From a virus (taxonomy: Duplodnaviria > Caudoviricetes), in the IMG/VR virus record IMGVR_UViG_3300027766_000001: a stretch of DNA of 64,000 nucleotides; one strand, written 5' to 3'. Below are positions 25,277-57,768 of this stretch, piece after piece. A model generated the notes under the pieces. It was not told the DNA's origin and ran no database searches. It was given only the letters and a program-made list of their open reading frames with translations. Position 1 is the stretch's first letter. Every line of letters starts with the position of its first letter. The position numbers and the translations under genes were made by a program.

Positions 25277-26665
25277 ATGAGCTTATCTTTTGGTGAAGTT
25301 ATTGAGAAGTCTAAGCCGATTCGGCCGTTGCTGAATATCGGTGCCGGCTTTGACATCCCGACCGGCAGTTATCGTTTTGGTAAGCATGGTGAGTCTATCC
25401 TGAACGGTGGACTGGCTCCTTACACAGCGATCGTCGGGAAAGGCAACACCTTTAAAACCGCCATTATGATGTTTAAGATGGGTCGTGTACTGGAACGCTA
25501 CGGCAACAGTAACGCCCTGCACTACGATACCGAATGTACCTTTGGTACTGACCGTATCCTGAGCCTGATGTCCCACCTCGATCCGGGTGTGGCGCAAAGC
25601 TGGATCGATGAAGGTCGTATCTACCTGACCGATGACTCGATTGCCAAGGGTAACGAATGGTTTAAGAAAACCGTTCAGGAGTATGCGACGTTAAAACAAA
25701 AAGATCGCAAGTCCATGGGTACCCTGCCTTTCGTTGACAGCAACGGCAATCCAATTCCTTACCTGTTCCCAACCGTGAACGGCGCGGACTCCATCTCTGA
25801 GATGAAGTTCAACGACCTGGAAAAGAACTACGCGAAGATGGAAATCGGCCAGGGCGAAATGCAGACCGAAGCCATGCGTGTGTCGAACGCCAAACGTATG
25901 CTGATCGAAAAGACCCAGGGTTATGCAAATGCCGGCGGGTTGTATGTGATCATGTCAGCGCACCTCGGCAAAGAGCTGAACATGGACGGCAAACCGCAAG
26001 AGAAGAAAACCACCTTCATGAAGCAAGGTGACAAAATCTCTAAAGTGCCAAGCCAGATCCTGTCACTGCCGAACAACGCCTGGGAAATCTCCACCGGTAC
26101 GGTGTTGATCAACCGCGACACCAAAGAGTGGTTGTATCCGAAACCGGGTGATGTTGAAACGGCGGGTAACCCCGATCTGCTAACCCTGGTGGCGAAGAAC
26201 CTGCGCGGTAAGAACGGCCCGTCTGGTGTACCGTGGGAATTTGTGATGTCACAGTCTGAAGGTCTGCTGCCGTCACTGACTGAATTCAACCACATCAAAA
26301 ACTGCAACCGTTACGGCCTTGGCGGGAATGACCGTAATTATTATGTTGAGTTACTGCCTGATGTGAAGCTGATGCGTACCACGGTCCGTGGCAAGATCGA
26401 TGAAACCGCTGAGCTGCGTCGTGCGCTGGAAATCACCATGGAGATGTGCCAGATGCGTTACCTGTGGCACACCCGTGATCCGAAGTACAACGTGACACCT
26501 GAAGAACTGCGCGTTGGGCTGGAGAAGAAAGGGTACAAGTGGGATGTCCTGCTGAATACCCGTGGCTTCTGGACGTTTGAGGAAGATAACCATCCTCTGC
26601 CGTTCTTGAGCACCATGGACTTGCTTCGCATGTACCATGATGAGTACCGTCCGTACTGGATGTAA
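25277..26665 (+). CDS. uvsX: UvsX/RecA-like recombinase (phiKZ gp152-like)
   Basis: Walker A GKGNTFKT, YDTE motif, GADSISE, IMSAHLG; SD AAGGA. Confidence 0.85.
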   Translation: MSLSFGEVIEKSKPIRPLLNIGAGFDIPTGSYRFGKHGESILNGGLAPYTAIVGKGNTFKTAIMMFKMGRVLERYGNSNALHYDTECTFGTDRILSLMSHLDPGVAQSWIDEGRIYLTDDSIAKGNEWFKKTVQEYATLKQKDRKSMGTLPFVDSNGNPIPYLFPTVNGADSISEMKFNDLEKNYAKMEIGQGEMQTEAMRVSNAKRMLIEKTQGYANAGGLYVIMSAHLGKELNMDGKPQEKKTTFMKQGDKISKVPSQILSLPNNAWEISTGTVLINRDTKEWLYPKPGDVETAGNPDLLTLVAKNLRGKNGPSGVPWEFVMSQSEGLLPSLTEFNHIKNCNRYGLGGNDRNYYVELLPDVKLMRTTVRGKIDETAELRRALEITMEMCQMRYLWHTRDPKYNVTPEELRVGLEKKGYKWDVLLNTRGFWTFEEDNHPLPFLSTMDLLRMYHDEYRPYWM

Positions 26666-26750: not shown

Positions 26751-27167
26751 ATGTTGAATAAAGAAGTACGTATAGTCGTTGCCGGCGATAAGGGGTTTCA
26801 TAACAAGGACCGCCTGAAGTCGGCACTGGACTCACTGATCAGTGACATCTTTCTGGTTAATGAAGGTGTTACTGATGAAGACGAGCTCCTGACGAAAGAG
26901 CATGTGGTGCTGATCACCAACGGGGAAATCAAAACCCTGGCAGCAGAGGTGAAAGAGTACTCGGTAGCTGCAGGTATTGACATCCAGGAAATCCCGGTGG
27001 AATGGGATCGTGGAAAGAAAGCATTCTTCGACAACTGTGGCGTGTTAGGTCTGCGTTCAACGCATGCCCTGATCTTCACCAACCACAACGACGAAGGTAT
27101 GTCTTCGCTGATCAAAGCCTGCCTCACTAACGGCAGTCGTGTGCGGGTCTTTACCTGCGCGATTTAA
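26751..27167 (+). CDS. SLOG-family protein (YspA/DUF2493-like), divergent
   Basis: RIVVAGDKGFHNKDRLKSALD, LITNGE, IPVEWDRGKKA, HALIF; ATG 26751 (track starts at 26685). Confidence 0.7.
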   Translation: MLNKEVRIVVAGDKGFHNKDRLKSALDSLISDIFLVNEGVTDEDELLTKEHVVLITNGEIKTLAAEVKEYSVAAGIDIQEIPVEWDRGKKAFFDNCGVLGLRSTHALIFTNHNDEGMSSLIKACLTNGSRVRVFTCAI

Positions 27168-27176
27168 GGATTCACT

Positions 27177-28466
27177 ATGATCGTATCGGAATCACACATC
27201 GGCATTCTTGATGTACCAGTTAGCCACGTCATTTGCACCGTCAATACTGAAGGGCATATGGGTAGAGGCATCGCGCTGTACCTTAAGAAGTGTATTCCCG
27301 GTCTTTATGACGCATACCGTGAGCAGTGCAAACAAAAACAATTACTGGTCAACACGTTATGGGTTTATGATCACAACACGCCAAAAATTCTTTGTTTCCC
27401 AACGAAAGATAAAACGTGGGAAGATAGCAGGTTGGAATGGATTGAAACCAACCTGCACACGCTGCGGGATACCTACCGGGAACGGGGTATCACGAGCGTG
27501 GCTATGCCGCCATTAGGCTGCGGCAACGGTGGTCTTAAGTGGGAGGACGTGCGTCCTCTCATTTATGCCATTCTCGGGGATTGCGACTTGCAGGTGCATA
27601 TTTGCCTGGGTGTCAAATTACCCAAACCTGAAGAAGACAGTCATACCCACATCAACATCTGGACCAAAGGTCGCACCAGTCTCGGTCGTCGTTTGAGCAA
27701 TTTGTCAAAGCACGGGTTCCTGCATGAGGATCACGGTTGGTTTGAATGTCTCGAAGGTTACTGGTATTGGTTAGCAACCGGCTGCAAACATGAACAGTTC
27801 AAACAGATGAACGGGTTTGAAGCCAAGCAGATCGGGTCCAAGATGGAGCGGGTGGAAATGCCTGACTTCCAGGAACGCTTCAAAGAAGGTATGCGACTAC
27901 GCATCGAACAAAATGAGATCCTGCGCTCAGAGCTCTTGAATTCCTCGTTGCCGTTTGAACACTACTACGTCTATGGCAATGATGCAGTTCGTGACATGAA
28001 AGCGCGGCATCAATGGCAGCTGGACTTCTACGTGGAGTACCGGAATAAAATGCAAGAAGAATCTGAAAGCTCCAGGAAGAAACCCATGAAGATCTTGATT
28101 GCGGGTTCACGCACGTTGAAGAACTATAACCTGTTCAAACAGATTGCTGATGAATACATCGGTAACTTTGTCACCCCGTTTGATAAAGACTACGACATTG
28201 AGATCGTCACCGGTCTGGCGTTAGACGGTCCTGACAACATGGCAATCCGTTATGCACGTGAACGGGGTCATGGGTTGATTGGTCGTCCAGCGCTGTGGGA
28301 TAAGTACCAAAAGCCTGCGGGGATGATTCGCAATGGCGTTATGGGTAAAATGGTGGATGCGGCACTGGTCCTGTGGGACGGTGAGTCTCGTGGCACCAAA
28401 AACATGATCGACCTCCTTGTGAAAAATAATATAAGCCATTTCGTGTTTATATTCAGCAAGGACTAA
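27177..28466 (+). CDS. Macrodomain (DarG-like) - NADAR - SLOG triple fusion
   Basis: Macro: TVNTEGHMGRGIA, ILCFPTK, SVAMPPLGCGNGGLKWEDV. NADAR: LGRRLSNL, FECLEGYW, GFEAKQIG. SLOG: KILIAGSR, IVTGLALDGPD, AGMIRNGVM, WDGESRGTKNMI. Confidence 0.85.
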   Translation: MIVSESHIGILDVPVSHVICTVNTEGHMGRGIALYLKKCIPGLYDAYREQCKQKQLLVNTLWVYDHNTPKILCFPTKDKTWEDSRLEWIETNLHTLRDTYRERGITSVAMPPLGCGNGGLKWEDVRPLIYAILGDCDLQVHICLGVKLPKPEEDSHTHINIWTKGRTSLGRRLSNLSKHGFLHEDHGWFECLEGYWYWLATGCKHEQFKQMNGFEAKQIGSKMERVEMPDFQERFKEGMRLRIEQNEILRSELLNSSLPFEHYYVYGNDAVRDMKARHQWQLDFYVEYRNKMQEESESSRKKPMKILIAGSRTLKNYNLFKQIADEYIGNFVTPFDKDYDIEIVTGLALDGPDNMAIRYARERGHGLIGRPALWDKYQKPAGMIRNGVMGKMVDAALVLWDGESRGTKNMIDLLVKNNISHFVFIFSKD

Positions 28467-57114: not shown

Positions 57115-57768
57115 ATGCTAACAATTAATCCGGATTTTGATATCTACCACCCCAAGATCACCGAGCAACATAACGGGGCAATCAGAAACAACACCATCCA
57201 GGCAAAGAACTACAAAGAGACTTTCTACGCACTCATTGAAAAAGTGCATAAAGAACTCTATGGGGTTGTTTACGAGCAAATGCGTGCCAGCACTATTATT
57301 GAAGGCTGGCGTTACGGTTTTGCCCCGACCGCAGTTGCGCAGTATATTCTGAACGACATCATTAGCATTCAGAATCTGGTATACGGTTGCACGGGTTATC
57401 ATGAGATGGTAATCGACCATTTGCGCACGACTCTTCAGTTGAACAACAACACCTGGGGTCAAGCGTACGGCTATGTTCCGGCATTGGAAGAGTTGAAACT
57501 TCCAGTAGGTACCGTGCAGGGTCAGATCAATGCGCGTCTGAAAGACATTGCAAGCAAAACCAGTCGCTTCCCTAGCCTCACTGAGCATTGCGTGTTTAAT
57601 CGCCACATTCCGAACGCGAACGTGGTACACAACGACGATGAGATTACACTGATTAACACCTTTGCCATGCAGACGGTGGGCGCTGTGGTTAAGCTCATTC
57701 AACCAGTGTTCGATGAGACCCATCAGTTTGATGCTGAAACACAGGAAGAAACCCATGAAACTGCTTAA
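57115..57768 (+). CDS. Hypothetical protein, tandem paralog B
   Basis: SD AGGAG; GWRYGFAPTAVAQYI and TWGQAYGYVPALEE. Confidence 0.8.
   Translation: MLTINPDFDIYHPKITEQHNGAIRNNTIQAKNYKETFYALIEKVHKELYGVVYEQMRASTIIEGWRYGFAPTAVAQYILNDIISIQNLVYGCTGYHEMVIDHLRTTLQLNNNTWGQAYGYVPALEELKLPVGTVQGQINARLKDIASKTSRFPSLTEHCVFNRHIPNANVVHNDDEITLINTFAMQTVGAVVKLIQPVFDETHQFDAETQEETHETA

Follow-up and report, generated by a model that had tools for sequence, protein, structure and literature searches.

A macrodomain, a divergent NADAR-fold domain and a SLOG domain fused in one protein of a chimallivirus: a candidate eraser of DNA ADP-ribosylation

In a 64,000-nucleotide stretch of viral DNA (Duplodnaviria, Caudoviricetes; IMG/VR record IMGVR_UViG_3300027766_000001; the whole stretch is called the window here), the gene at 27177..28466 (+) encodes a protein of 429 amino acids (aa) that joins a DarG-like macrodomain, a divergent NADAR-fold domain and a YAcAr-class SLOG domain. 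All activities that we ascribe to this protein we infer from its three folds, from the catalytic-type residues that it has kept and from the pattern of fusion and fission among its relatives. On this basis we favour, with moderate confidence, a nucleus-resident eraser of DNA ADP-ribosylation that has two catalytic heads of complementary specificity and a SLOG domain binding nucleotides or single-stranded DNA (ssDNA). The open reading frame (ORF) begins with an ATG and ends with a stop codon at 28464-28466, as read from the sequence. The original prediction of a three-module ORF at 27177-28466 was borne out, by Pfam for the macrodomain and the SLOG domain and by structure for the middle domain, and the presence of three modules in one ORF is far beyond chance. 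The domains are placed as follows.

27177..27617 (+): macrodomain of the DarG2/AdfM type, aa 1-147, with N23, K77 and the phosphate loop PPLGCGNGG
27624..28070 (+): divergent NADAR-fold domain, aa ~150-298, assigned by fold and by profile-profile matches
28077..28463 (+): YAcAr-class SLOG domain, aa 301-429, assigned by the Pfam YAcAr match and by structure matches

All sequence motifs on which the prediction had been built are present in the 429-aa ORF where it had placed them. The macrodomain carries TVNTEGHMGRGIA (aa 21-33), CFPTK (aa 73-77) and AMPPLGCGNGGLKW (aa 109-122), the middle domain LSNL (aa 173-176) and LEGYWYW (aa 192-198), and the SLOG domain KILIAGSR (aa 305-312), TGLALDGPD (aa 345-353), AGMIRN (aa 381-386) and WDGESRGT (aa 400-407).

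DarTG systems block phages by ADP-ribosylating phage DNA. Two phage answers are known so far: the NADAR AdfN counters DarT1 and the macrodomain AdfM counters DarT2, each as a solo protein. In their base specificity, NADARs and DarG macrodomains complement each other (PMC11125620). In the mechanism that we propose, a three-module anti-defence enzyme would be imported into the phage nucleus, where it would keep replicating phage DNA free of the ADP-ribose adducts placed by host DarT-type toxins. Module 1, an orphan DarG2/AdfM-type macrodomain, would hydrolyse thymidine-linked ADP-ribose in ssDNA by means of N23 and K77. Module 2, a divergent NADAR-fold hydrolase, would remove a second, macrodomain-resistant adduct, either the ADP-ribosyl-guanine that DarT1 makes or an adduct on another base. 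Module 3, the YAcAr SLOG domain, would bind the adenine-nucleotide part of ADP-ribose and perhaps also cleave it, or would tether the enzyme to ssDNA.

The macrodomain matches Pfam Macro over aa 21-128 (E 7.8e-11), and its best PDB sequence matches are the macrodomains of two DarG proteins, from Thermus aquaticus (5m31, E 3.2e-24) and from Mycobacterium tuberculosis (5m3i), followed by a Thermosipho DarTG fusion and TARG1. Its AF2 model (pLDDT 90) was matched by Foldseek to Thermus aquaticus DarG 5m3e (E 8.6e-14, TM(target) 0.88, root-mean-square deviation 1.6) and by VIA to Mycobacterium tuberculosis DarG 5m3i (Z 22.8, 146 aa, 35% identity). With DarG macrodomains as the best matches in both sequence and structure, and with the FPTK lysine in place, the proposed DarG-like character of this domain is substantiated.

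The DarG models of PADLOC (E 1.1e-43) and NCBIfam were matched in their N-terminal halves alone, which means that the DarT-binding domain is absent from the fusion protein; the NCBIfam DarG equivalog NF048014 requires 250 bits, of which 140.8 were reached, and of its 338 model positions only 8-179 are matched. Identity with a full DarG antitoxin was ruled out by this score below the cut-off and by the lack of the C-terminal DarT-binding domain, and from its sequence the N-terminal domain is best classed as DarG-like but not as a DarG antitoxin. Compared with the DarG2 antitoxins of DarTG2 systems (5M31/5M3E; 5M3I), which are the best match of aa 1-147 and share the FPTK lysine and the VNT asparagine, the fusion protein differs further in being encoded by a phage and in having no DarT gene beside it.

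The macrodomain was aligned with RAY gp152, PhiPA3 gp108, a phiKZ-like gp104 homologue, Machina gp207 and four DarGs from bacteria. N23, K77 and the PPLG.G..G loop (P111-G118) are among the columns that do not vary, and N23 and K77 line up with the catalytic Asn/Lys pairs of Taq DarG2 (N22/K80) and PhiKZ AdfM (N23/K78) (PMC13309987, PMC11543638). The absence of the DarG-type histidine, raised earlier as a caveat, is real but not disqualifying: N23 and K77 are kept, and the histidine is also missing from the phiKZ-like gp104 homologue (FPTKDNW) and PhiPA3 gp108 (FPTKERW). The predicted function of the macrodomain is well supported by homology to characterised enzymes, from which its activity is deduced.

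The phage itself was placed through its relatives. The region shares 82% DNA identity with Erwinia phages pEa_SNUABM_37/48, both of which carry the same 429-aa fused gene, 81% with Salmonella phage SA002 and 78% with Agricanvirus phages (RAY, Rebecca, Simmy50 and others). Agricanvirus is a member of the family Chimalliviridae, and chimallin is encoded by both SNUABM_48 and RAY; no chimallin gene lies within the 64-kb window. By this sequence comparison, the source phage is assigned to the chimalliviruses (nucleus-forming jumbo phages) as a relative of pEa_SNUABM_37/48 and Agricanvirus.

In this family, an orphan macrodomain has already been studied experimentally. Morgan et al. (2026, Cell Rep; PMC13309987) report that chimallivirus AdfM enters the phage nucleus, strips DarT2-made ADP-ribose from ssDNA and protects against DarTG2, the nuclear shell alone being insufficient. 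For PhiKZ AdfM, activity was shown and DarT2 toxicity was rescued, and nuclear localisation was found for the AdfM proteins of PhiKZ, PhiPA3 and the Erwinia phage Asesino (PMC13309987). The notion that such a gene is unexpected in a lineage with a nuclear shell has been overtaken by this work, since chimalliviruses import AdfM into the nucleus against DarT2. AdfM (anti-DarT factor macro: PhiKZ gp104, PhiPA3 gp108, Asesino gp217) resembles aa 1-147 in being an orphan DarG2-like chimallivirus macrodomain with the same Asn, Lys and Gly loop and no DarT-binding domain, and tblastn with this macrodomain recovers AdfM homologues in PhiPA3 (E 6e-12) and phiKZ-like phages (E 7e-14). It differs in being a stand-alone protein of ~160 aa in another genome neighbourhood, whereas here the macrodomain forms the N-terminus of a 429-aa three-domain protein.

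The middle domain was identified mainly through its fold. The AF2 model, built on the family alignment, has a pLDDT of 97, and its three top Foldseek matches in the PDB are YbiA (E 6.1e-4, TM 0.63), the Phytophthora NADAR 8bau and the Geobacter NADAR 8bat, the rest being noise. An exhaustive VIA comparison returned the same three proteins (2b3w, which is YbiA, Z 12.3; 8bau 11.2; 8bat 9.9) and placed the next chain at 3.4. All ten significant matches among the Swiss-Prot AlphaFold models are YbiA or other NADAR-containing proteins, and a search of BFVD listed family members at the top and then many annotated viral NADARs. At the profile level, the best PDB match of the family is again the 8bau NADAR (E 0.052), and hhalign aligned the family to a 36-member alignment of T4 gp30.3/AdfN with a probability of 97.1% (E 6.3e-11, 138 columns). 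The middle third, which had been expected to model as a NADAR, does so, with YbiA, 8bau and 8bat as its sole structural matches.

An exhaustive HMMER search with the middle domain collected 1,381 cluster representatives at E<=1e-3. NCBIfam, PADLOC and Pfam returned nothing for the middle domain alone, and PHROGs matched it to families of unknown function only (phrog_11222, phrog_652). Within the 49-member family alignment, E193 is the only invariant column, and it pairs with E36 of AdfN and E43 of PnNADAR, that is, with the conserved NADAR glutamate beside the distal ribose (PnNADAR E43, AdfN E36, E. coli C7 E88). The nearly invariant H262 (PF.HYY motif) pairs with AdfN H123; this charged residue of the last strand is Glu in YbiA, Asp in DarG1-type NADARs and His in phage gp30.3-type NADARs (PMC11125620, PMC11543638). 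An Asp and an Asn are also near-invariant, and LSN(L/F), W281 and the family-specific N-terminal motif DG..HIN..KG.T.LGR complete the picture. Judged by sequence and model together, the middle domain is best described as a distinct family in the NADAR superfamily, a member of neither PF08719 nor PF08010. Pfam does not detect this family, which at 50% identity forms more than 1,300 clusters and is repeatedly found joined to DUF4326 and SLOG.

The closest characterised counterpart is AdfN, which is T4 gp30.3 (PF08010), a phage NADAR that reverses guanine ADP-ribosylation by DarT1 (PMC11257639, PMC11125620); cytidine ADP-ribosylation is also reversed by some NADARs. The two share the NADAR fold, the LSNF motif and the residue pairs E36~E193 and H123~H262, but K43 of AdfN is A200 here, the loop with its invariant R86 is absent, and AdfN is a solo protein detected by PF08010, whereas the domain described here is fused, silent to PF08010 and PF08719, and carries its own DG..HIN..KG.T.LGR motif.

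The SLOG domain (aa 301-429) was recognised by a marginal Pfam match to YAcAr (PF10686; aa 304-377, E 1.3e-6, 28.6 bits against a gathering cut-off of 28.2), which agrees with the YAcAr/DUF2493 class suspected in the original prediction. VIA on the full model matched aa 301-429 to YpsA (2nx2, Z 13.0), ShosA (11.5), DprA (11.0) and TM1055 (10.8), and DprA (3uqz) is the best match of the SLOG family profile among PDB sequences (E 1.3e-3). In the alignment the SLOG motifs AGSR, G.A.G.D, AG.IRN and DG.S.GT are conserved, as are G310, R312, G346, G351, D353, R385, N386 and G406, and the Gly-rich loop after strand 1 is present. DprA was rejected as the identity of this domain: PF02481 (DNA_processg_A) does not match the fusion protein at E<=1 and YAcAr matches instead, the 'DprA-like' labels reflecting the common SLOG fold.

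The start of the SLOG domain coincides with a repeated sequence. The 18-mer CAGGAAGAAACCCATGAA occurs twice in identical form, at 28073-28090 (+) and at 57742-57759 (+), with 0 occurrences expected by chance. The first copy supplies an AGGA and an ATG at M304, the residue with which the SLOG domain opens. From the second copy a 64-aa ORF starts at 57755; it has a CxxC pair and a hydrophobic stretch and overlaps the end of its preceding gene. Separate translation of the SLOG domain from the internal start at M304 finds no support outside this genome, as the Shine-Dalgarno sequence and ATG are not kept in SNUABM_48 DNA.

The arrangement of the three modules varies among relatives. The uninterrupted three-domain layout recurs in eleven other 90%-identity clusters (P0002-P0005, P0007-P0011 and P0013 among them) at 49-94% identity, which shows that the fused ORF is not a sequencing accident; some of these relatives come from contigs 250-290 kb long. 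RAY and Rebecca encode the macrodomain and the NADAR-like+SLOG part in two neighbouring genes. RAY gp152 is 71% identical to aa 1-145 and RAY gp153 47% identical to aa 148-428; the two are orthologous parts in the same genomic position, differing from the protein described here in being two genes and not one fused ORF. Other relatives combine the modules anew, as Macro-SLOG (P0014, P0015) or Macro-SLOG-DUF4326 (P0020), and more distant ones as Macro-DUF4326-NADARlike-SLOG (P0152) and DUF4326-Macro-NADARlike-SLOG (P0233), two domain orders of one module set. On metagenomic chimallivirus contigs (L009 5479-7077, L010 6001-7644), both four-domain genes lie a few kb downstream of chimallin, with an RNA polymerase subunit also a few kb upstream. 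Among the 56 multi-domain members of the NADAR-like family, the partners are DUF4326 in 30, YAcAr in 22 and Macro in two. That these modules have come together repeatedly and independently speaks for a shared pathway.

RAY gp153 also bears on where the protein may act. Prichard et al. (2023, Cell Rep; PMC10299810) found that gp153, annotated as DprA, co-localises with phage DNA in the nucleus, and grouped it with recombination proteins. By Pfam, gp153 has a YAcAr match only, and its N-terminal half, like that of relatives annotated 'DprA-like' or 'DNA processing protein A', has a NADAR fold. The RAY study (PMC10299810) reads gp153 as DprA, and no mention of its NADAR-like half was found. The recombination role given to RAY gp153 derives solely from its SLOG fold, and the DprA annotation probably needs revision.

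Several points weigh against the proposed eraser. The canonical NADAR lysine is absent, the position of AdfN K43 and PnNADAR K50 being A200 here and A, S, T or V across the family; this lysine (E. coli C7 K95) contacts the pyrophosphate, and K43A inactivates AdfN (PMC11257639). The region of the PnNADAR pyrophosphate contacts W89/R93 is likewise unmatched in the family, so ligand or chemistry may differ. PF08719 (NADAR) and PF08010 (Phage_30_3) do not match the fusion protein at E<=1, nor any of 49 solo family members at E<=0.01, although T4 gp30.3 as a control matches PF08010 at 4.6e-71. The macrodomain is only 29-32% identical to the AdfM homologues (PhiPA3 gp108, the phiKZ-like gp104 homologue, Machina gp207) vs 41-44% to bacterial DarG, and given this distance import by its own PicA has to be assumed. 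The role of the SLOG domain within the fusion is a predicted one, and the pTM of 0.53 of the full AF2 model makes the arrangement of the domains relative to each other unreliable. For the middle domain, fold, Glu/His pair and context would point to NADAR-like activity, a reading that is weakened by the missing lysine. For the reversal of DarT1 marks, as originally proposed, the NADAR fold, the glutamate and the histidine speak in favour; as the lysine essential in AdfN is missing, the reversal itself stays conjectural.

The same domain vocabulary has been given a different meaning. Iyer et al. described tandem NADAR-Macro proteins and SLOG fusions in large phages computationally (2021, PMC7824862; 2022, PMC9503650) and favour action against soluble ADP-ribose-derived signals. 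Following these authors (Iyer, Burroughs, Anantharaman, Aravind), the protein might degrade soluble ADP-ribose-derived immune signals or toxins, such as the cyclic ADP-ribose isomers of TIR/Thoeris-type systems or ADP-ribose-1''-phosphate, its three domains cutting different bonds of one small molecule, or several molecules. We consider this unlikely, though it deserves to be kept in view. It agrees with the published contextual inference for this domain network (PMC7824862, PMC9503650) and with the frequent fusion of the NADAR-like family to YAcAr and DUF4326, both predicted small-molecule-processing domains, and a NADAR pocket without lysine would suit a non-canonical ligand. A SLOG protein with an R-N...T motif (ORF83) has moreover been reported as anti-Avs and is a predicted AMP binder (bioRxiv 10.1101/2025.06.06.658234), comparable to the SLOG domain described here in its motif spacing only. 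However, the characterised macrodomains of the DarG type, to which this one belongs, work on DNA adducts. AdfM and RAY gp153 are nuclear, whereas the makers and sensors of host signals would be expected in the cytoplasm. Because both halves of the protein are nuclear in relatives, we favour a role on nuclear DNA over one in Thoeris signalling. The idea that one chain could neutralise both DarTG types and also act on ADP-ribose-type signals thus holds for the domain types, but the Thoeris-signal part is less likely than the DNA part.

The genomic position raises another alternative. Gene order is conserved, a UvsX-like recombinase gene being followed by a solo SLOG gene, the Macro/NADAR-like/SLOG module and then a virion RNA polymerase beta-subunit piece. 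The two upstream genes and the signal in front of the fused gene are located as follows.

25277..26665 (+): UvsX-like recombinase gene (phrog_97, E 6e-46), an upstream context kept in relatives by synteny
26751..27167 (+): solo SLOG gene (Pfam YAcAr E 4.3e-4, under the cut-off)
27166..27170 (+): Shine-Dalgarno-like AAGGA, 6 nt before the ATG at 27177, read directly from the sequence

The NADAR-like and SLOG domains could accordingly form a recombination or ssDNA-handling accessory of the adjacent recombinase (a 'DprA-like' mediator), in which case the NADAR-like domain would be non-catalytic and the macrodomain merely a fused neighbour. This is improbable in our view. It would explain the conserved place of the block directly after the UvsX-like gene, the nuclear localisation that RAY gp153 shares with gp150, the RAY orthologue of the recombinase, and their grouping among recombination proteins (PMC10299810), the DprA matches of the SLOG domain in sequence profile and in structure, and the loss of the canonical NADAR lysine. 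But YAcAr and not DNA_processg_A is matched, YpsA scores above DprA in structure, and no separate DprA flanking domains are detected, judging from the domain boundaries and the usual architecture of DprA. In the NADAR-like family, the invariant Glu together with a His, an Asp and an Asn that hardly vary speaks for an active site, and the same module occurs away from UvsX, near chimallin and fused to Macro and DUF4326. Even less probable is a role in RNA metabolism or repair, in which the protein would clear the ADP-ribose-1''-phosphate or Appr>p left over from tRNA repair of the 2'-phosphotransferase type, or would free RNA of ADP-ribose or NAD-derived groups: relatives are annotated 'phosphatase' or 'Appr-1-p processing' and Iyer et al. 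tie some viral Macro and NADAR domains to RNA repair (PMC7824862, PMC9503650), but those annotations are generic macrodomain labels, the nearest proteins in sequence and structure are of the DarG/TARG1 type and not Poa1p/MacroD-type phosphatases, and among the genes next to the fusion gene we saw none for an RNA ligase, a kinase-phosphatase or Tpt1.

As for novelty, neither the three domain types nor their fusion as an idea was new, and AdfM had been tested in this virus family. New are this three-way architecture in a chimallivirus, the NADAR fold in RAY 'DprA' and the NADAR-like family without the lysine. To the original prediction the three-way architecture was not known to be characterised; architectures of this class had in fact appeared in the computational work of Iyer et al. 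(2021, 2022), with the same Macro/NADAR/SLOG/DUF4326 vocabulary but as predictions only and with a preference for soluble-signal processing. We came across no published account of this particular protein, of its nuclear context or of the changes in its NADAR active site, nor of any experimental work on the fused protein, YAcAr or DUF4326.

If the protein is a nuclear DNA ADP-ribose eraser, one nuclear protein with both eraser types would constitute a compact multi-specific counter-defence in nucleus-forming phages, and it would be further evidence that the nuclear shell leaks enough to need anti-defence of the DNA-repair type. It would also provide a first function for the large unannotated NADAR-like family and for phage YAcAr SLOG domains. 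A more specific version, tentative and on present evidence doubtful, is that two unrelated base-specific de-ADP-ribosylases share one chain and that all three domains act in the nucleus: the macrodomain on thymine adducts, the NADAR branch without lysine on guanine, cytosine or other adducts, and the SLOG domain in sensing or destroying the released ADP-ribose. The NADAR-like family would then be a new class of ADP-ribose hydrolases with its own active-site solution and possibly a new substrate.

Only 9 nt separate the solo SLOG gene from the fusion gene downstream of it, and the AAGGA overlaps the stop codon of the solo gene. The solo gene is a paralogue of the C-terminal SLOG domain and holds the same position in all relatives inspected by synteny (SA002, RAY, SNUABM_48, Rebecca); the Rebecca orthologue, QBP07259.1, is a YAcAr example cited by Iyer et al. 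In the alignment nearly all family motifs are degenerate (AGSR to AGDK, G.A.G.D lost, AG.IRN to AFFDN, S.GT to DEGM), and the protein carries an acidic insert. It may be a non-catalytic partner that is part of the system. A hidden Markov model search of the window found no further Macro, NADAR-like or AdfN-type genes.

The junction between the macrodomain and the NADAR-like domain shows additional variation. P0006 (684 aa) and P0012 (683 aa) carry an I-TevI-like GIY-YIG homing endonuclease of ~257 aa in frame at this junction, which comprises a catalytic and a DNA-binding domain and is flanked by a repeat of the P.P..DG..H linker. In sequence the junction has the look of a homing site at which two once separate genes meet. 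At the SA002 locus (L001 5173-7049), a 290-aa Macro+NADAR-like ORF ends early and is followed by a 326-aa ORF, in which the end of the macrodomain and the complete NADAR-like domain come a second time before the SLOG domain; this repeat of ~190 aa arose by tandem duplication or else is an artefact of assembly. Directly downstream of a four-domain gene lies a LuxI-type autoinducer-synthase-like gene (PF00765, PF21926, PF13444; L010 7656-8360), which is also found at L011 1733-2437.

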